21,263 bases of DNA, from the IMG/VR virus record IMGVR_UViG_3300035698_029829, positions 135,427 to 156,689 of that record. One strand, given 5' to 3'. A program made the translations under genes and the position numbers. Numbering within the stretch: position 1 is the first letter of the stretch; the number at the start of each line of letters is the position of its first letter. Of this stretch, positions 1-17,824 are shown one piece after another. The notes beneath the pieces were generated by a model, which worked only from the letters and a program-made list of their open reading frames with translations, was not told the DNA's origin and ran no database searches. The stretch is from a virus. Its lineage: Duplodnaviria; Heunggongvirae; Uroviricota; Caudoviricetes.

Positions 1-128
1 TCATCGCCGATCATGAAAATGGTGTCCTTGTTGTTGAACTGTATGAGAGACCCAACCGGATATTCGCTGAAGGGCCGATTCAAGATCTGATCACACTGCG
101 CATCCCGCTTAAATATCTGGTGATTCAT
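1..128 (-). CDS. Hypothetical protein, truncated by the window edge (MNHQIFKRDAQCDQILNRPF...)
   Basis: ATG at 128 overlaps the stop of the upstream gene (ATGA), is preceded by GGAGGG, and the frame is open to position 1. Confidence 0.6.
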   Translation of the reverse strand, partial: MNHQIFKRDAQCDQILNRPFSEYPVGSLIQFNNKDTIFMIGD

Positions 129-1135
129 TTTCCCTCCACTGTTGGATTCATCAGCGGATGATCGAGTATCTCTCGAAAGACCGCAATCGGCGTAGTAGCC
201 ACCGGTATGGGAGTCGCACTCTCGAATAGCCGTTCCACCAACTTATCGAAGAACTTCGGGTCCTTCGCCTCCAACACCTTGACGCGCTCTCGCAGGGGGT
301 CCCCGAGGTCCCACACGTCAGCATCGTCGCTAATCTCCTCTGGGTCGCCGCCTACCAACGTCAGCATCTCACGATAGCCCGCTGGAACTCGGCAGACTTT
401 CGCCAGATGATCTACAACCTTATCAAAGAGATCCCAGGCGTCGTCGTTCAGATCGAGTGACAGAACAAGATCCCAATCCTCTTGGGTGATCGGCGGCGCA
501 CCAAGAATAGGATACTCTGCCCACTGGCTTATGAAATTGGGTGGCGTACCAGCCTCCAACGCACCTTCGAAGCGTTCCGGTAATAGCCCCAAGTCGTAGG
601 CAATCTGAAACCGCCCAAACCGTCGGTACAAAGCCTGTGCGAAGGATTCAGCGGTCAGTGGCCCCAGACCGCCACTATCCCACACCTTTTCAGCAAGGTT
701 CCTCAGTTGAACCTTGAAAAGCGGGAAGCGTTCACACAAACCTTCAAGCTCGTCGTTCAAGTCGTTCGCCTCACAGGCGGTAGACAGATGGGTGTCCTTA
801 CGCCATTCCGGAGCCTCGTAGAGCCACAAGAACTTGGCGAGTAGCGGGTTAGGGGTTACGCTCGGAGTTTTAATACCCTCTTGAAGTCCCTTCAAAGCCT
901 CGCCTGCTTCTTGATCTCGGAAGGCGACCTCCTTTAGAAGAGTTACGAGGGCCGACCGATAGCGTTTAATGAACCGTTCGCTGATCGCAGGGACAAGACC
1001 AGCCTCCGCGCGCGAGATGTTCGCCTGCCAGACATGCGCATGGTTCGCGACGAGGACCTGCGAGAATTTGAACCTTTTTCGGATCGCGATCAAAGGGGCG
1101 AACATCTCCCATCTACGTGGCTTCAACGTCTTCAT
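125..1135 (-). CDS. XRE/Cro-CI-type HTH domain protein, 336 aa
   Basis: Start moved to the ATG at 1135 (GGAGG SD, downstream of the promoter). The N-terminus LIAIRKRFKFSQVLVANHAHVWQANISRAEAG fits the XRE HTH pattern. The C-terminal region is unrecognised. Confidence 0.7.
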   Translation of the reverse strand: MKTLKPRRWEMFAPLIAIRKRFKFSQVLVANHAHVWQANISRAEAGLVPAISERFIKRYRSALVTLLKEVAFRDQEAGEALKGLQEGIKTPSVTPNPLLAKFLWLYEAPEWRKDTHLSTACEANDLNDELEGLCERFPLFKVQLRNLAEKVWDSGGLGPLTAESFAQALYRRFGRFQIAYDLGLLPERFEGALEAGTPPNFISQWAEYPILGAPPITQEDWDLVLSLDLNDDAWDLFDKVVDHLAKVCRVPAGYREMLTLVGGDPEEISDDADVWDLGDPLRERVKVLEAKDPKFFDKLVERLFESATPIPVATTPIAVFREILDHPLMNPTVEGK

Positions 1136-1151
1136 ACAAACCTCCATCCCC

Positions 1152-1180
1152 TGCCTACCAAAGTCTAAGCGGTTTGTCAA
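1152..1180 (-). promoter_or_regulatory. sigma70-type promoter with weak -10 and no TGAACG operator
   Basis: CTC-TTGACA-AAC, 17-bp spacer, TGG-TAGGCA. Confidence 0.55.
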
Positions 1181-1401
1181 GAGTTTTCGCGTCTTAGCCA
1201 CCAGAAAAATTTTTTGGCGCATTTTTTTAACTCAAGGATTTTAAGATTTTTAACTCTCTATGCGCGCGGGAATGAGCAAGCGCGGCGTACGCGAAGCGGG
1301 TCAGCGCGATGACACCCCCCACTGGGGCGATTTTTTTCACACCGGCACGCTTTGACTCGGCGCGTCAATTTTTTCTGAGTATAGGGGAGAAAAGGTGGTT
1401 T

Positions 1402-1445
1402 GCCCTCCTCCTCCTCCCGCTGAATACGGGCACTCGGAGGAGGGC
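1402..1445 (-). terminator. GC-rich stem-loop after gene 1452..2144, possible terminator
   Basis: 10-bp stem GCCCTCCTCC/GGAGGAGGGC with an inner CCCG/CGGG hairpin. The U-tract is not directly adjacent. Confidence 0.35.
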
Positions 1446-1451
1446 GGTAGG

Positions 1452-2144
1452 CTATTGGGTGGGGCTCACTTGAAGCCGGGTGACCGGCTTGTACTCGTAT
1501 TGGGGTTGACCGTCGTCGTCGCGGCCGACGAGCGCGAAAACGCGCACCCAGTCGCGAACGAATAGCTTGGCCCGCCGTCCGGTGCCCTTGATCTCGGAGC
1601 CCAAGCGACTGAAAATGGTTCCAGTGCGCTTGGCGGTGCCGTCGGCCCGATCCACATAAATGGGGAACCGTGTTTTGCACGCGCCGTATTCTTCGAGCAG
1701 GAGGGCTCGCACCTCGGCCAAGGTTGCGCATGGAGTCACGGTCTTGTCGCCACGCCGCTGCCAATTCTTTCCTCGGCCAGGTCGCCTCACGGTGTGAACC
1801 ACCTCGACCAAGAAAGCGGGGTCGTCGACTGGATCGTCGTCGGCCTCGGGGTCCCACTCCAGGACGCCGTTGTCGTCGAAGCCGTCGGGGCCGGTCCACT
1901 CGTTTATGGGGGTGAAGCCGCCTATGACGAGACCCATGTCGTCGTGGTGCCAGACGATCTCTTGCCCATCGATCTTCTCGCGAAGATCACCGGAGCCTTC
2001 ACTCGCTCCGAAGGCACGTGCTAAGGCACGCACACCGTGTCCGCTTCCGATGTGTGCAACGCGTTCACCCTTGAAGGCCAGAGTCCACAGACCGCTCATG
2101 GGGTGACCACTCAGGCCGCTGATTATGTCTCGGTAGAACTTCAT
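1452..2144 (-). CDS. Hypothetical protein, 230 aa
   Basis: Long ORF, AAGGAG SD, ATGA overlap with the upstream gene. Confidence 0.85.
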   Translation of the reverse strand: MKFYRDIISGLSGHPMSGLWTLAFKGERVAHIGSGHGVRALARAFGASEGSGDLREKIDGQEIVWHHDDMGLVIGGFTPINEWTGPDGFDDNGVLEWDPEADDDPVDDPAFLVEVVHTVRRPGRGKNWQRRGDKTVTPCATLAEVRALLLEEYGACKTRFPIYVDRADGTAKRTGTIFSRLGSEIKGTGRRAKLFVRDWVRVFALVGRDDDGQPQYEYKPVTRLQVSPTQ

Positions 2145-2404
2145 GTTCGGCTCCTTCTTTGATGCTGCGGTTGACTGAGTTTGTGGTTGCGCTGGCTCAC
2201 GGGGCCGTGCGGTAGGTTCAAGCCGGTAGAGCGCTTGAAGGCGCGCCGCAAGGTTCTCACCTCTACGATCTTGTCGTGTTGGTGGTTACAACAACTGGTA
2301 TCGAGCTTGGGTGCCTGGGTACAGAAGTCACCGAAATCTCGGCAAACTGTGTACTTGCGAACCAGTTCGTCCAGTTGGTTGGGAGCAGGGTTTATTCGTT
2401 TCAT
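2141..2404 (-). CDS. Hypothetical protein, 87 aa
   Basis: GAGAGGA SD before the ATG at 2404; first gene after the promoter at 2434-2462. Confidence 0.65.
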   Translation of the reverse strand: MKRINPAPNQLDELVRKYTVCRDFGDFCTQAPKLDTSCCNHQHDKIVEVRTLRRAFKRSTGLNLPHGPVSQRNHKLSQPQHQRRSRT

Positions 2405-2433
2405 GCTTGATTCCTCTCTCATCTTGTAAGCCT

Positions 2434-2486
2434 ATTATATCAGAACTTGCAAGGTTTGTCAAGAGGAAATGAACGGCTTCGTTCAT
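2434..2486 (-). promoter_or_regulatory. Consensus sigma70 promoter plus upstream inverted-repeat operator
   Basis: TTGACA (2462-2457), 17 bp, TGA-TATAAT (2439-2434). IR ATGAACG-AAGC-CGTTCAT at 2469-2486. Confidence 0.9.
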
Positions 2487-3040
2487 TATTTTACGTCGAT
2501 GGTCAGAACCACGGTCGGTTTGTCGTCCACGGTCTCCAGCTTCACGTCGCCGATCTTCAGGCTCGACTGGCGGTCCTCGATGACGGCGGTTCGAGCTGCG
2601 TCGGTTAAGGCCACCTGGAGCACCGTTTCGGGGTCGCCACCTGCCACGAGTGTGAAGAGGGGTGTAACCAGGTCGAGGACCTTTTGGGTCGCCTCGGGTT
2701 TGGCTTCGGGTACAACTTTGGGCTCGATCCACTGACCACGGGAAAGGGCGGTATGCTTAATCCAATTCAGGTTGTTTGGATCGTCGGTTCGACCAAACTT
2801 TGTCTGAATGGCTTCCATGAAGCCCAGGTACTCAGCGTAAGTACAGTTGTCGTCGAGGAACTGATTCTCGATTCCGGCGGTAACGTAGCAGAATCCGCAC
2901 ATCTTCTGTCCGGAGCCGTTCTCCCCCTGGCCGGTGTCGCGGGTACTCTTGCCGCACTTGGTGCACGTATAGGCACTGTTGGGGGCCTCGGAGGAAAATG
3001 TCGTCGTAGTACCGGTGCTATCGTCTTTCATTTCGGGCAT
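2486..3040 (-). CDS. Hypothetical protein with a CxxC...CxxC Zn-finger-like motif, 184 aa
   Basis: AAAAGGAG SD before the ATG at 3040; motifs CTKC and CGFC. Confidence 0.8.
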   Translation of the reverse strand: MPEMKDDSTGTTTTFSSEAPNSAYTCTKCGKSTRDTGQGENGSGQKMCGFCYVTAGIENQFLDDNCTYAEYLGFMEAIQTKFGRTDDPNNLNWIKHTALSRGQWIEPKVVPEAKPEATQKVLDLVTPLFTLVAGGDPETVLQVALTDAARTAVIEDRQSSLKIGDVKLETVDDKPTVVLTIDVK

Positions 3041-3064
3041 GGCCACTCCTTTTACGATCTTTGA

Positions 3065-3214
3065 AGACCCGATGCGAGGCGGCTTAGGCACCCCGCCTAA
3101 ACACCTGACCGCCCGTCAACTTGCCGCGTAGCTGCTGATCTCAGTCGTAGCCCCCGGCAGGAGGTTGCACTCCTGAAGCAGCTTCCCGCTTATCGGCCTG
3201 AGCTGATTCACGGC
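3065..3214 (-). ncRNA. Candidate structured RNA or leader
   Basis: Non-coding gap downstream of a strong promoter with nested stems: GCCGTG/CGCGGC, AGCTGCT/AGCAGCT, CAGGAG-TGCAAC-CTCCTG and TTAGGC-GGGGT-GCCTAA. No family recognised. Confidence 0.3.
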
Positions 3215-10228: not shown

Positions 10229-10257
10229 AGTATATCAGATGTTCGGGAGTTTGTCAA
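10229..10257 (-). promoter_or_regulatory. sigma70 promoter without the TGAACG operator
   Basis: CTC-TTGACA-AAC, 17 bp, TGA-TATACT. Confidence 0.85.
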
Positions 10258-10375: not shown

Positions 10376-10395
10376 AGATACCACCGGTGGTATCT
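10376..10395. repeat. Palindrome copy 1, AGATACCACCGGTGGTATCT
   Basis: 20-bp perfect palindrome, intergenic. Confidence 0.95.
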
Positions 10396-10444
10396 TAAAT
10401 GCAGAGCGTCTACAGATAGGCGTTTTCGGGAGGCTCACTAAGGA

Positions 10445-10462
10445 GATACCACCGGTGGTATC
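10445..10462. repeat. Palindrome copy 2, GATACCACCGGTGGTATC
   Basis: 18-bp perfect palindrome, 68 bp centre-to-centre from copy 1. Confidence 0.95.
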
Positions 10463-10471
10463 ATATAGGTA

Positions 10472-10499
10472 GATACCAAAAACTCGGCCACCTGGTATC
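10472..10499. repeat. Split palindrome variant GATACCA-N14-TGGTATC
   Basis: Same 7-bp arms with an expanded, non-symmetric spacer; overlaps the stop codon of 10498..11154. Confidence 0.6.
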
Positions 10500-11154
10500 A
10501 AGGCAGATCGGTTTCCACCAGCTTCTCGATCAGCTCGTAGGGCTGCAACCGCCGGAGTTTGACTGGCGTAGCGGTGTACTCGAAGTCCCGTCCCTGGTGC
10601 ACGTGGTAGGCGCTGAACACGCCCACCTTCTCGCCGTCGGGGGCCAAGGATAGCAGCGTGTCATCGCGGCCACCCATGCACAAATCATGAATCTTCGGAT
10701 CGTCCTTTGAAACCGTGGTGCCCCACCGTCTAATGAGCAACACATCCCCCTCGTCGTCCTCCAAGGCGAAGGCGTAGCGGACGGTGAGCATCTCTCGCTG
10801 GCCGAGTCCTTCGAGGGCGGCGAGATGGTTAGCCAGGTTGATCTCCAGGGCGCTCATCCTCCCTGGGTCACCAGGTACCGCCACGGCTGGTCTCCAACGG
10901 CGCGGCGTATCGTAGTCCCATTGTGGGATGGTGTAGTCCCAAGTCCGGATCATGCTCAAATCGCGCTTCACGTCGGGAAGTTCGGGCGTCGGTCGGACTA
11001 GGTAGGCGAGGTAGTGGAGCCACTTGGGCTCCGGACGACCGAAATGTTGGAACATCTCACCCTTCGTCCTGATCTGGACAGGTACCTGGGTGGGTCTACC
11101 CCCCGCCTTCCCGACGAGTCCCATGATAGCCGCACTGAGTTTATTCTTGGCCAT
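10498..11154 (-). CDS. Hypothetical protein with the C-terminal LVE tag, 218 aa
   Basis: Start MAKNKL (11154); ends KLRRLQPYELIEKLVETDLP. Confidence 0.85.
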   Translation of the reverse strand: MAKNKLSAAIMGLVGKAGGRPTQVPVQIRTKGEMFQHFGRPEPKWLHYLAYLVRPTPELPDVKRDLSMIRTWDYTIPQWDYDTPRRWRPAVAVPGDPGRMSALEINLANHLAALEGLGQREMLTVRYAFALEDDEGDVLLIRRWGTTVSKDDPKIHDLCMGGRDDTLLSLAPDGEKVGVFSAYHVHQGRDFEYTATPVKLRRLQPYELIEKLVETDLP

Positions 11155-11380
11155 CGGCTTCTTCCACCAGGCGTTCAATTGCCTCGGTTATGGTTGCTGA
11201 CCGTGACCAAGCACCACCGTAATTGTCGATCTCAATGAAAACAACTTGAGGATTGCCGGTCAAAGAGTTAGTCCTTTCGTAAAATCCGTCCTCCTTTTCT
11301 AAGTCCCACCATCGAGACCAACCATCAAGAACCCGGGCAGTAAAGGCAGCCAATTCTATTGTAGCCTGGTTGTCCCTCAT
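11141..11380 (-). CDS. Hypothetical protein with the C-terminal LVE tag, 79 aa
   Basis: ATGA overlap; ends WSRSATITEAIERLVEEADGQE. Confidence 0.8.
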   Translation of the reverse strand: MRDNQATIELAAFTARVLDGWSRWWDLEKEDGFYERTNSLTGNPQVVFIEIDNYGGAWSRSATITEAIERLVEEADGQE

Positions 11381-11778
11381 CCCAAATCCTCTTCGACCAG
11401 AAAGCCGATCAGTTCAATGGGCGTCACCGGACGAGACCATTTCCGTCCGTAATCGTCATCCTCGGAGAAGAAAACTGTCTGAAATGGCAGATGGGTGGTT
11501 TCAACCTGTTCGGTTGAAACTGGGCGATATGAACCTGTTCGGTTGAAACCGAGTGGTATAAACCTATTCGGTTGAAACCAACCGTGTTCCTCGCGCCACG
11601 TTCTTTCCAAATCTCCCATTATCTTACGGTCGATGTCCAGGGCTATCTCTTGGGCCAGTGTTTGGGTAATCTCCTTCTCACCAGGGAAATCCTCAGTCTC
11701 ATCGTCGAGGTCGAGGGATTGCTCGGAAATGGTCTTTACGATGTTTACTCCTTCGTAGATGTGCTTGTCACCCGTCAT
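11377..11778 (-). CDS. Hypothetical protein with the C-terminal LVE tag, 133 aa
   Basis: ATGA overlap; ends WSRPVTPIELIGFLVEEDLG. Confidence 0.8.
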   Translation of the reverse strand: MTGDKHIYEGVNIVKTISEQSLDLDDETEDFPGEKEITQTLAQEIALDIDRKIMGDLERTWREEHGWFQPNRFIPLGFNRTGSYRPVSTEQVETTHLPFQTVFFSEDDDYGRKWSRPVTPIELIGFLVEEDLG

Positions 11779-11996
11779 CCCATATCCTCTTTGATAAACA
11801 GATTCATCGCCTCATAAGCCGTTAACGGCCGCCACCACTTACGACTGAATCCATCCTTCTCAATAAAATGCGTGCTAGATTCAGTCAACAGCGCACCACG
11901 GCCCGCACCGAGGACGGCGTTATTCGGAGCAAGTCGAAAACCCCGTGCTCTGTAATCAGCAGCAACCAACCTAGCCAACACCGAAGACATCTTCAC
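11775..11996 (-). CDS. Hypothetical protein with the C-terminal tag, 73 aa
   Basis: GTGA overlap, GAGGAGG SD; ends WWRPLTAYEAMNLFIKEDMG. Confidence 0.8.
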   Translation of the reverse strand: MKMSSVLARLVAADYRARGFRLAPNNAVLGAGRGALLTESSTHFIEKDGFSRKWWRPLTAYEAMNLFIKEDMG

Positions 11997-12406
11997 GGCA
12001 GTTCCTCCTCGACCAGGTAATCCAAGAGGTCGGCCGGATCGACGAGGCGCATCCAGCCCACCTGATGTTCATCGCCGTTCAGCTTTGGCTCCGGTATCAG
12101 ATCGACCACCGTTTCGTCGTCAAGCGATCCCATGAGATTCCCCTCCTTGAAGCCATCGAAGGCAGGGATCTCGATCTCCAGGATAGTCGTTGGGTTCGTC
12201 GGTACCCGATACCAGGCATACGCGCCTTCGGCGTCGACTCTGACAAGCTGTACCCGGAAGCACCCTGTTGGGAAGACAGCCGGTTTTGGGAGCCTGGCGA
12301 AGGTACAGTCAGGCGGTCCATGAACGGCGAGGGTGGAGCAACTCGGCCCCTGTCTGTGGATGCGGTCGGTCATCTCGATCACCTCGTTGAGGAGGCTCTT
12401 GGTCAT
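11993..12406 (-). CDS. Hypothetical protein with the C-terminal LVE tag, 137 aa
   Basis: ATGA overlap, GGAGG SD; ends WMRLVDPADLLDYLVEEELP. Confidence 0.8.
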   Translation of the reverse strand: MTKSLLNEVIEMTDRIHRQGPSCSTLAVHGPPDCTFARLPKPAVFPTGCFRVQLVRVDAEGAYAWYRVPTNPTTILEIEIPAFDGFKEGNLMGSLDDETVVDLIPEPKLNGDEHQVGWMRLVDPADLLDYLVEEELP

Positions 12407-12984
12407 GACCGCTCCTCCGGCATTATTACCAGTTCGTCGAGGTGGAGTGTACCGGTTCGACCTTCCAAGTCGGCAGCCACCAGGCCGTCGAGCACTTCAC
12501 GAGGGCTTGGATAGTAGATGTCGCCGTGGAACACGTGGTACCGAGTTGTTCCCCAAAGGTCAGTGACGCCTGTCTCTTGAAACCGGTGTGTGTACAGCCG
12601 AAAGAGGTGTTCACTGCCCCTTGAAAAGTCATCGAAAGGAACGTTTTCTTTATCGTGCGGCCACGCTCCCTCCGACATAATTACGTAGTCGTCGGTGCCG
12701 ATTATTTGAAAACAAGTTGCCATTTCCTCCATTAAAAACTCGTGCCGTTCATCGGCTTGAGCACTTTCGGGAGGACTGGGGCTCCAGGTGATCGAGACCG
12801 AACCAACTAAAGGGGATACCTTCAACTGGTACAGGCCGGAAACCATGGCGCGGTGTTTCGTAATATGGAAAATGCTCCAAAATCGTCGGCCGTCGCGTCG
12901 TAGACTCTCTCGTATTTCGCGCTCCGCGTTCATAGTGAACGTCTTGCCGATATTGCGACCTACTTGGATGCTCTGACGAGTCAC
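12403..12984 (-). CDS. Hypothetical protein with a sub-terminal tag, 193 aa
   Basis: GTGA overlap; YPSPREVLDGLVAADL lies 20 aa from the end. Confidence 0.8.
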   Translation of the reverse strand: MTRQSIQVGRNIGKTFTMNAEREIRESLRRDGRRFWSIFHITKHRAMVSGLYQLKVSPLVGSVSITWSPSPPESAQADERHEFLMEEMATCFQIIGTDDYVIMSEGAWPHDKENVPFDDFSRGSEHLFRLYTHRFQETGVTDLWGTTRYHVFHGDIYYPSPREVLDGLVAADLEGRTGTLHLDELVIMPEERS

Positions 12985-13391
12985 GTCTCCTCCTCGACCA
13001 GGAATTCCACTACCTCACTTGGCATAGCAGCTCGCACCAGATGTAAGCGGCTACCTGGTGGCGCTCTGAAGCGGTGCGTTTTCTCAAAGGTAGCTTCAAC
13101 CTGGCTATGCGGCGGCACAAGGCCAACTGGCGTGTACATCCAGGTGGGACCGACATTGTCGACGACGATGTGCCCTTGCAATTCAGAGTAAGATTTGTCG
13201 TCTATCATCCAACTGGCAATCGCCTCACCGTGGATCGACGCATCATAGTGGATCACGTCGCAGACGGTAAGCCGGATCGTGAGCGTCTCATCGTCCAAAT
13301 CGTACGGAGCAGGCTCCGCTACCTTTATCTCGTGACCGAGAAATGTGCTGTGGACAATGAAAACTTTATTTGCCTTCGGTTGTGTTCTCAT
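12981..13391 (-). CDS. Hypothetical protein with the C-terminal LVE tag, 136 aa
   Basis: ATGA overlap; ends LVRAAMPSEVVEFLVEEET. Confidence 0.8.
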   Translation of the reverse strand: MRTQPKANKVFIVHSTFLGHEIKVAEPAPYDLDDETLTIRLTVCDVIHYDASIHGEAIASWMIDDKSYSELQGHIVVDNVGPTWMYTPVGLVPPHSQVEATFEKTHRFRAPPGSRLHLVRAAMPSEVVEFLVEEET

Positions 13392-14056
13392 CGCACCACC
13401 CCTAACGCCCGACGGAGTTTGCCTCGATTAGGCTTCGCCAATTCGGTAGCCAACTCTACCTCAGTCTCGACCAGGCGCTCCATCAACCATGCCGGAGTCA
13501 CTAAGTTGACGCGGGACTCCCAGGCGTTCTTCGCCTCCTGCGGCGGAGCCACTGGTGTACCACGTAACGCCGAACGCGTTCCGGGGGTTAAGTTGGCGAT
13601 CAGATCCTGAACCAAGCGGATGTCCTCCTCGGCCAGGTTGGCAACCAGCTTCGTGGGCACCACGTAGACGTGCTCCGTCCGTTCAACTCCCTTCCAATCG
13701 CCGATCTGTAATACTCCAGCGGTCTTTGTACCCAGCACCACTACGCCGGAATTCCCCTCGGCATCTCCAATAGTGAGAAAAGCGCGTAAGTCGATTCGCA
13801 CAATCCAGGGACCGAAGGGTGACGTAATTTGCTGAGGTAATTGAACCCGTGTGTTGAAAGGGGATGGCGGAGGTGGAACGGGTGGCCGCTGTCCGGAGAC
13901 ACGGCCTTTGGGATCATGGAGGATCAAAACGGTGCCCTCGGGCTCGAAATGCAGGTGTGCCACAGCACAGAGGCCAGTCGGAGGCTCGCCCCCGAAGGCA
14001 AGCACCAAAGTTTCGACAGTCCGAGCCGTCGGGGATATGACTCGTGGGCCTTCCAT
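13388..14056 (-). CDS. Hypothetical protein with a sub-terminal LVE tag, 222 aa
   Basis: First gene of the coupled run; LVTPAWLMERLVETEV lies 22 aa from the end. Weak SD. Confidence 0.8.
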   Translation of the reverse strand: MEGPRVISPTARTVETLVLAFGGEPPTGLCAVAHLHFEPEGTVLILHDPKGRVSGQRPPVPPPPSPFNTRVQLPQQITSPFGPWIVRIDLRAFLTIGDAEGNSGVVVLGTKTAGVLQIGDWKGVERTEHVYVVPTKLVANLAEEDIRLVQDLIANLTPGTRSALRGTPVAPPQEAKNAWESRVNLVTPAWLMERLVETEVELATELAKPNRGKLRRALGVVR

Positions 14057-14073
14057 GTGTTTATCTTACCACG

Positions 14074-14113
14074 AAAAAGCGAAACGGCGACCGATGAAGC
14101 CGGTCGCCGTTTC
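14074..14113 (-). terminator. Intrinsic terminator-like hairpin
   Basis: 13-bp perfect stem GAAACGGCGACCG/CGGTCGCCGTTTC, 7-nt loop, then GCTTTTT on the minus strand. Confidence 0.7.
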
Positions 14114-14160: not shown

Positions 14161-14189
14161 ACAATTTCAGATATTGGGTGGTTTGTCAA
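14161..14189 (-). promoter_or_regulatory. Possible sigma70 promoter with weak -10 and no operator
   Basis: TTGACA-AAC, 17 bp, TGA-AATTGT; same scaffold as the other copies. Confidence 0.5.
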
Positions 14190-16314: not shown

Positions 16315-16354
16315 GTTGTTTAGGTCAAGGCTAGGACAGGAAAGGAGAATCACC

Positions 16355-17824
16355 ATGTCCAAGAGAAAGCCATCTCTGCCCTCTCACAAAAAAGTCGATG
16401 TCACAACCAAACCGATGCGGAAAAAGACCCGTCCTTACAAGGCCGTCTGTAAGGTCTGCTCCAGGGAATTCCAGAGCGCCAAACCGACAGAGGTGTGTCT
16501 CAATTGCCGTGCCGAGGGATCTGAAGCCGCCGAGGAACTGATCCGCCTCGAACGCCTCCAAGAAAACGTGGATGAGACAATGCGCCTCGAACGCCTCAAA
16601 GAGGAGGCGAATGCAGATCACTGGTTCCACTGCAACGATTGCGAGACGGAGTTCCGCGCCGAGGACGAGGACCCGAACTACGACGGCACCATCGAGGCGT
16701 TAGACAACCTCGTCTGTCCGGAGTGCGCCAGTGCCAACCTTTCAGGGATAGCATATTCGCCGATCAAACTTGCGAAGAAAACACTCACCTTTAACGATGT
16801 GATCGGACAATGGGAAGCCGAAGCCACCCTCAAAATCTTGCACCCGAGCTTAACCAGGGCACTCGAAGGAGGAGTGTACGGCCAATCTGATGTCGACCGG
16901 CTGCGTCTTGCTCTCGTGCACCAGGTCAACAAGCAGGTTGAACGGCACTTACCTGATTCGGCAAAGACCACGGCGAAGGGCGAGATGCGCGATCTTGCGT
17001 ACACCCTTCACCGCCTGGCAAACCTGGCAGACCCCACACCCTCGGCGTCTGTCCGCATCAATCCGGATATCCTGAAGGAGATTGCGAACCTTCACGGTCC
17101 CGGCAGTCTCAAAGAACTACGAGACATCGTTGATGAGAAGGCCCAGCGCCAAATCGACGAATTCCGGAAGGAACACGACTCGGCCAATCTAACCTCCGGC
17201 GAGCGGTATCTCAAGCAACACGGAAAGGGTGGCTACTTTTATCCCTATGGTATGGCGGGGGAGTTCTTGTTGGCCTTCATGAACCGCCTGGCGTCTTACT
17301 TCGGTTCCCAGGGACACGTGACCAACCGGCTCTACGATCTGCTAAAGGTCGCAGGCGTCGTCCCCGATCCCGGTGAGCCATGGGAGCGGTCGCGTGCCCG
17401 AGCAGTGCGGGTCGAGCTGTTCAACGTAGTGTGCTACAACACGATGATGGGCATTACAAATCGAATGCGTGACCGGCTTGTCAAGGACTGTCGATTTCAG
17501 ACCAAGGAAGAGTTGGGGCGGGACTTTGTAGACCGGAGCCAGCTGGAGCTGTGGTTTATTGATAACTGGTTTGGCTGGATGACCAAGGCCCGCGAGGAAG
17601 CGTTTTGGGTTGGTGAGTTTGCTTTGAAGACGCACCAGTTTGAAGTATGGAAGGAACGAACCGCCGTACTCTTCAATCAAGTGACGCGCGAACCAAGCGA
17701 CACTTTCACGACCGCCGAGGTGCTCGTCGACGTACTGAATTTCTGCAAGGAACGCGTGACCGAGAAGTTTCTGGCTGAAGTACCACTGCGGCCAGGAGTG
17801 GTCGAGATGGAATCGACGGAGTAG
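16355..17824 (+). CDS. Large hypothetical protein with two N-terminal Zn-ribbon-like motifs, 489 aa
   Basis: AAAGGAG SD before the ATG at 16355; motifs CKVC...CLNC and CNDC...CPEC. Confidence 0.9.
   Translation: MSKRKPSLPSHKKVDVTTKPMRKKTRPYKAVCKVCSREFQSAKPTEVCLNCRAEGSEAAEELIRLERLQENVDETMRLERLKEEANADHWFHCNDCETEFRAEDEDPNYDGTIEALDNLVCPECASANLSGIAYSPIKLAKKTLTFNDVIGQWEAEATLKILHPSLTRALEGGVYGQSDVDRLRLALVHQVNKQVERHLPDSAKTTAKGEMRDLAYTLHRLANLADPTPSASVRINPDILKEIANLHGPGSLKELRDIVDEKAQRQIDEFRKEHDSANLTSGERYLKQHGKGGYFYPYGMAGEFLLAFMNRLASYFGSQGHVTNRLYDLLKVAGVVPDPGEPWERSRARAVRVELFNVVCYNTMMGITNRMRDRLVKDCRFQTKEELGRDFVDRSQLELWFIDNWFGWMTKAREEAFWVGEFALKTHQFEVWKERTAVLFNQVTREPSDTFTTAEVLVDVLNFCKERVTEKFLAEVPLRPGVVEMESTE

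Follow-up and report, generated by a model that had tools for sequence, protein, structure and literature searches.

In cellulosomes, proteins with unrelated bodies carry one common C-terminal module, the dockerin, a duplicated, calcium-binding module of about 70 amino acids (aa) whose partner is cohesin and which is read by a single scaffold. Other terminal peptides are shorter: the capsid-targeting sequence of phage T4 is N-terminal on internal proteins and is removed by the gp21 prohead protease, the cargo-loading peptides of encapsulins are C-terminal and rich in Gly, Ser and Leu, and the clamp peptides of T4 gp43, gp33 and gp55, together with the acidic tip of single-stranded DNA-binding protein (SSB), lie at the extreme C-terminus and rely on aromatic or hydrophobic residues at that end. 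Here we describe an operon of a large uncultured phage in which all eight genes encode a tag at or near the C-terminus, with the consensus R-x-h-T-P-x-E-h-h-E-x-L-V-E-E-[DE]-h (h, hydrophobic; x, any residue) and comprising a strand and an acidic helix in about 20 residues. The operon runs from position 14056 down to 10498 on the minus strand of the DNA analyzed here (the window), a stretch of 21,263 nucleotides (nt) that forms the final 21 kb of the 156.7-kb linear viral contig IMGVR_UViG_3300035698_029829. The phage genome is estimated to be 62% complete. DNA of this phage is present in several salt-lake metagenomes, and its host is probably halophilic.

Closest in logic to this operon are the dockerins and the effector-associated domains (EADs), although it is a member of neither group: it lacks a core NTPase system and matches neither in sequence or fold. 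EADs are small, non-enzymatic terminal modules for which a role in linking variable proteins to a core has been proposed; they fold independently, are mostly all-alpha and accompany a core NTPase system of the vWA-MoxR, GTPase or STAND type (Kaur, Burroughs, Iyer and Aravind 2020, eLife; PMC7159879). Like EADs, the phage tag is a small, non-enzymatic terminal module on diverse proteins of one operon, and its copies in adjacent genes are lineage-specific. Unlike EADs, which are larger, it spans only about 20-34 residues, and it is borne by a phage. No core NTPase, vWA or STAND component was found in or beside the operon when its genes were searched with Pfam, NCBIfam and PADLOC and the flanks with Pfam; the 38% of the genome that is not yet sequenced may encode such a component. 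As in the dockerin-cohesin system, unrelated bodies end in one common module, but the phage tag has no sequence similarity to dockerins and no partner of it has been identified.

A preliminary description of the window had drawn analogies to encapsulin or microcompartment targeting and to the T4 clamp peptides, and neither is supported. The tag shares with the first group that it is a short terminal peptide or helix, which there addresses diverse cargo to one shell. However, it is strongly acidic, helical and preceded by a strand, unlike the encapsulin peptide, and the shell genes (PF04454 and PF00936) are absent from the 156 kb of this genome that were searched. With the clamp peptides and the SSB tip it shares the presence of one common C-terminal peptide on different proteins, which in those cases is read by one hub. 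Unlike them, the tag tolerates tails of 15-27 residues; copies either end in acidic-h-[G/P] or carry such tails, and none has a Q-L-x-L-F or D-D-D-I-P-F pattern (motif definitions from general knowledge).

The eight open reading frames (ORFs), here numbered g1 to g8 from the first gene of the operon to the last, are translationally coupled: all seven junctions overlap, six by 4 nt (ATGA or GTGA) and one by 14 nt. Both the ORFs and the eight motif copies lie where the preliminary description had placed them and, as it had claimed, no further gene in the window is tagged. Over 38 non-redundant tagged proteins found overall, the consensus is R5, h7, T8, P9, E11, h12, h13, E14, L16, V17, E18, E19, [DE]20 and h21, with 79-84% acidic residues in columns 11, 14 and 18. 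The Thr-Pro pair was considered as a phosphorylation site and rejected, T/S/D-P-x-E being a standard helix capping box.

A profile trained on all eight window copies scores them at 17-31 bits, against at most 7.3 bits for the remaining genome, a circular test because these are the copies from which the profile was built. When each copy was left out in turn, scores were 24.5 bits for g6, 10.4 for g7, 8.9 for g8, 8.2 for g1, 6.4 for g4, 5.9 for g2, 3.6 for g5 and -2.1 for g3. The decisive test used independent training. A profile made only from the eight copies of a related contig, L001, placed seven window genes at ranks 1-7 among the 3063 six-frame ORFs of the genome (28.3-10.5 bits) and missed g3, and the maximum for shuffled ORFs was 5.7 bits. 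Among 76 ATGA/GTGA junctions genome-wide, 30 of them with a sequence resembling a Shine-Dalgarno (SD) element, the best junction outside the operon, that of the weak ninth copy described below, scored 10.8 bits and the next at most 0.9. The tag is neither a chance motif nor a by-product of SD sequences.

When the genome was scanned independently with a profile of 33 positions, the hits were the eight operon genes and a weak ninth copy (genome 107261-107314, E 0.007). This lies in a small minus-strand ORF about 28 kb before the window (genome 107222-107644; L013 3223-3639) that is coupled to the next gene and probably carries a diverged, near-C-terminal copy of the tag (10.8 bits); the ORF ends in D-G-R-T-G, resembling the tail of g3. 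A weak tag-like stretch (9.7 bits), which may be due to chance, is internal to another minus-strand ORF (genome 94211-94801; L014 2212-2802) located between genes for a CHAP-domain protein and a PP2C phosphatase.

The tag is retained while the genes that carry it are exchanged. A family profile of nine sequences was searched against 1.84 billion protein representatives and found only 16 proteins, all ending in the tag. The contigs of these proteins, together with those of g1 and g8 homologues, constitute the relatives considered here and represent at least five lineages. L001, which is syntenic with the window, has eight tagged genes; L011/L012 has nine, with L012 spanning from inside the g1-type gene to beyond the operon end; L002 and L008, both from one sample, have at least nine; and all complete genes are tagged in the fragments L007 and L010. 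The more distant L006 has three tagged genes (19-3114) that end in a variant, ...R-P-T-x-x-E-x-x-x-x-L-A-E-E-E-L-P. Only one of these three variant-tagged bodies is related to the g6 family, and the tag may have older, diverged forms.

Wherever the ends of the operon are seen, a g1-type gene is first and a g8-type gene last. In L010 and L012 no gene is seen before the g1-type gene, which in L002-L004 lies directly after the promoter. All complete genes between these bookends are tagged and flanking genes are untagged, whereas lineages differ in which middle genes they have and in what order. Identity between the window and L001 is 48-75% for flanking genes but at most 35% for those middle operon genes that are not replaced altogether, and the operon evolves faster than its flanks. 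Of 18 orthologous or paralogous pairs, 17 show higher conservation in the tag than in the body (pooled, 65% versus 47%). The preliminary description had named related phages with exchanged, tagged genes as support for its reading, and loss of the tag in homologues as evidence against it; such phages exist, and the homologues keep the tag.

Scans of IMG/VR with g6, g8 and the g1 family returned no relatives, blastn against phage GenBank gave no match, and a metagenome scan returned a single contig, which was already known. Full-text literature searches found no description of this tag or of a similar phage tag. In L002 (1-3519), L003 and L004, a close relative whose g1 is 79% identical, the type I-E Cascade genes cse2, cas7, cas5 and cas6e stand directly upstream of the operon promoter, with no cas1 or cas2 after cas6e. 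Cas7e and the type I-E Cascade set are absent from the 156 kb of the present genome. A functional link between operon and Cascade was considered and rejected: the cas genes belong to a transcription unit of their own, and this part of the genome lacks them. The L002 Cas7 had no relative among the genome contigs searched for host assignment.

The conservation of the tag is at the level of the peptide. Where non-orthologous copies have identical residues, the codons differ in 54% of cases, and codon usage would predict 63%. The synonymous codons are therefore nearly randomized, and selection acts on the peptide and not on the DNA. The exception is E18-E19, encoded mostly by GAG-GAG, which forms a GAGGAG SD of the next gene 5-10 nt before its start. 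In copies that do not serve as an SD (g1-type, g3-type and g8-type), E19 is replaced by T, V, A or other residues. The earlier proposal that VEE[DE] doubles as an SD is thus borne out, E19 relaxing exactly where no SD is needed. At 12-50 nt upstream, tag positions 5-17 are too distant from the SD to be part of it. Persistence of the tag in the last gene and in sub-terminal copies was likewise confirmed, and the tag is not tied to the stop codon.

Our favored explanation, which we regard as having an even chance of being right, is that the tag is a common adaptor module on exchangeable bodies and is recognized by one partner. The operon would then be a lineage-specific, fast-evolving array of accessory cassettes in a large salt-lake phage, each product consisting of a variable body and the common C-terminal module. 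The module itself would comprise a short beta-strand, which in the g5/g6/g7 group is a beta-hairpin, followed by a T-P-x-E helix cap and a three-turn amphipathic helix. Judged from helical periodicity, this helix would bury h12, h13, L16, V17 and h21 and expose E11, E14 and E18 as an acidic stripe. A conserved exposed face on unrelated bodies argues for a binding surface. As an adaptor, the module would let one partner, from phage or host, recognize all products, following the logic of dockerins or EADs. The last three tag codons (E-E-[DE]) additionally serve as the SD of the next coupled gene. More tentatively, we propose a dockerin-type phage docking system in which a single hub of phage or host origin holds an exchangeable set of eight to nine unrelated small proteins through a mini-module of about 30 residues made of one or more strands and the acidic helix. 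In a cassette-like operon with the conserved g1 and g8 as its borders, simple fusion to the module would suffice to recruit new bodies.

Predicted structures are consistent with such a module. In the AlphaFold2 model of g6, made with nine homologues (predicted local distance difference test (pLDDT) 67), a long helix at residues 32-64 is followed by a stretch that is of low confidence beyond about residue 78 and drops below pLDDT 50 at residues 82-96. Beyond this, strands 103-107 and 113-117 and helix 120-132 form a C-terminal module at pLDDT 82-86. The model of g2 (pLDDT 51) has a mostly beta body yet ends in the same kind of strand and helix (strand 117-121, helix 124-134).

Several points weigh against the adaptor explanation. 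No partner has been identified, and it is the conservation pattern that points to docking; of the preliminary proposal of a modular tag docking on one common partner, the modular peptide on unrelated bodies is supported, and the docking remains a conjecture. With leave-one-out training on the window copies, several genes score weakly (3.6-10.4 bits) and g3 is not recovered. Both AlphaFold2 models are of low to medium confidence. Because the host is probably halophilic, general protein acidity is to be expected. With only 16 proteins found among 1.84 billion, the comparative sample is small and phylogenetically close. Finally, very remote common ancestry of the bodies is compatible with the sequence-profile results.

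Large phages are rich in orphan genes that offer no route to function. A tag on at least eight unrelated orphan families provides a single experimental handle, the reader of the tag, and the mode of evolution is apparent: whole tagged genes are exchanged between conserved bookends and the tag is retained. If the docking explanation is true, nature would have produced a minimal tag for protein recruitment, through which the targets of the whole set of orphan proteins could be found. Were the reader a host machine, the operon would illustrate in compact form how a host can be taken over, or its defenses countered, in a modular way; if the tags bind one another instead, it would encode a variable multi-subunit complex.

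This last arrangement, in which tags bind each other or the bookends g1 and g8 to form one multi-subunit complex with no external hub, is the best of the alternatives, though we consider it unlikely. The tight translational coupling of the genes fits it, as does the fact that the g1-type and g8-type bookends, first and last wherever ends are seen, are themselves tagged, and the principle has been proposed for EADs (PMC7159879). However, the number of genes differs among lineages (8, 8, 9 and at least 9) and the identities of the middle genes vary, which would be unusual for a fixed complex. A fixed hetero-octamer was rejected because related operons have at least nine genes. Moreover, the exposed face is strongly acidic, so that self-association would need a basic counterpart. 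A predicted complex of g1, g8, g6 and g7 scored 0.00 with low fold confidence, and speaks neither for nor against binding.

The tagged proteins might instead be tandem duplicates of one ancestral gene, with the motif as the best-conserved element of a common fold. Some of them are indeed related. The genes g5 and g6 are true paralogues, both matching h4 of L001 over 82-105 aa (E 1e-14 to 1e-15), and h5 and h6 are likewise paralogous. The g7 protein shares a hairpin-and-helix module of 34 columns with the g5/g6 family (F5 versus F7, P 5e-11), and weak BLAST alignments of 75-100 aa connect the h3, h4, h5 and h6 groups. We grouped the tagged proteins, those of relatives included, into eight body families and compared the 28 pairs of family profiles by hhalign. 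With full-length profiles, the best alignment fell on the tag in 26 of the 28 pairs (15-34 columns, P 5e-11 to 0.07). Once the tag was removed, the best pair reached P 0.002, in an alignment of the 10 residues that immediately precede the tag, the remaining pairs were at P 0.007 or above, and 26 of 28 exceeded P 0.04.

By these profile comparisons, the eight window genes fall into seven unrelated body families, and not eight, because g5 and g6 are paralogous. The earlier claim of unrelated bodies accordingly stands between families once the tag is cut off, but not for g5 and g6, nor for the longer module that g7 shares with them. Common descent of all tagged proteins is made distinctly improbable by this result, together with protein sizes that range from 56 to 222 aa and exposed acidic residues that are as conserved as the buried ones. 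The predicted helical body of g6 and beta body of g2 would also speak against a common fold, in a comparison between models too weak to be decisive (pLDDT 67 and 51).

A further possibility is that the tag is a virion cargo label that loads proteins into the prohead, with L-V-E as the site of a head protease. Like the T4 capsid-targeting sequence, the tag is a short terminal peptide common to unrelated phage proteins, and it contains an [IL]-x-E triplet, which the preliminary description had likened to a gp21-type site. This triplet, L-V-E, is only three residues long. The T4 sequence is N-terminal, whereas the phage tag is C-terminal, or sub-terminal with conserved tails, and the T4 gp21-type protease (PF03420) is absent from the 156 kb searched, or 62% of the genome. 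In addition, a host-type promoter and fast evolution set the operon apart from structural modules. Nothing in the analysis indicates loading into virions or proheads, and we regard such a role as very improbable.

That the tag is a translation-level element, combining the SD of the next gene with a nascent-peptide effect on termination or reinitiation at the overlapping stop and start, is scarcely credible: GAGGAG at E18 and E19 and the relaxed E19 of copies not serving as an SD would fit, but the conserved positions 5-17 sit 12-50 nt upstream of that SD, the last gene has the tag as well, g1-type, g3-type and h2 proteins carry it 15-27 residues ahead of the stop, and the 30 other SD-bearing coupled junctions of the genome lack it.

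The individual genes differ in conservation and in the placement of the tag. The first, g1 (13388-14056, 222 aa), is the most conserved gene of the operon, with homologues that are 79% (P0003), 74% (P0004) and 64% (h1) identical; its sub-terminal tag (13457-13519) is followed by a conserved basic tail of 22 aa. In g2 (12981-13391, 136 aa; tag 12984-13046), the body is predicted to be mostly beta. Its orthologues are h2, where the tag is sub-terminal, and one L002 gene. The tag of g3 (12403-12984, 193 aa) is degenerate and sub-terminal (12466-12528), followed by a conserved LEG...LDELV tail; three g3-type orthologues (in L008, L011/L012 and L007) retain both tag and tail. The g4 gene (11993-12406, 137 aa; tag 11999-12061) has an orthologue in L008 with 63% identity in the body and 76% in the tag.

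The shortest protein of the operon is encoded by g5 (11775-11996, 73 aa; tag 11781-11843), the short paralogue of g6. It matches h4 with E 2e-14, and P0012 scores 78.5 bits against the family profile. That g5 might be tagged at both ends was considered and rejected: the N-terminal part of g5 corresponds to the body helix in the g6/h4 family, and the match between g3 and g5 is not significant (E 1.6). The g6 protein (11377-11778, 133 aa; tag 11383-11445; orthologue P0014) is predicted to consist of a long helix, a low-confidence linker and a beta-hairpin-plus-helix module. Orthologues of g7 (11141-11380, 79 aa; tag 11153-11215) occur in L008 and L001.

The last gene, g8 (10498-11154, tag 10504-10566), keeps its tag with no coupled gene downstream. 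Its start is most likely ATG 11154, giving 218 aa, because the homologue P0006 begins at the equivalent Met; the preliminary description had placed the start at TTG 11178. The g8 homologues (h8/P0006 and an L012 gene) are all tagged and all last in their operons. An exact pentapeptide, LDDET, occurs in g2, g4 and g6 (window 11993-13391) and was considered as a second motif; it is absent from the orthologues of g2 and g6, and its repetition is probably an effect of composition.

None of the eight proteins had a usable match in Pfam, PHROGs, NCBIfam or PADLOC, and Pfam and PHROGs scans of the flanking genes likewise gave nothing usable. Neither g1 nor g8 had a usable neighbor in the ESM Atlas, a Foldseek search with the g6 model found no match in PDB or BFVD at E ≤0.001, and the tag profile had no match among PDB sequences at E up to 10.

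The operon is preceded on the minus strand by a promoter at 14161-14189 (TTGACA, 17 nt, TGa-AATTGT), assigned by consensus only, which by its sequence is of host type, like its neighbors. The scaffold CTTGACAAAC...ATCTGA of this promoter is also present in neighboring promoters, at 10229-10257 and, in L002, upstream of the g1 homologue. No RNA dataset is included among the listed sequencing runs that carry phage DNA. Between the promoter and the start of g1, which has no clear SD, lies a terminator-like leader hairpin (14071-14113, minus strand) with a 14-bp stem and a U tract (-33.3 kcal/mol, z -3.3). It is kept in L002 (3599-3640) with a loop change and a G-U change. The hairpin might attenuate transcription until antitermination occurs, in the manner of lambdoid late operons.

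At the operon end, a weak terminator-like hairpin (10488-10506, minus strand) is followed by two exact copies of an 18-bp palindrome, GATACCACCGGTGGTATC, just downstream of g8 (window 10376-10470). Elsewhere in the window, a plus-strand ORF of 502 aa (16316-17824) spans a divergent promoter region, with a weak match to a HypA-like zinc ribbon and a faint PADLOC match to Cas10.

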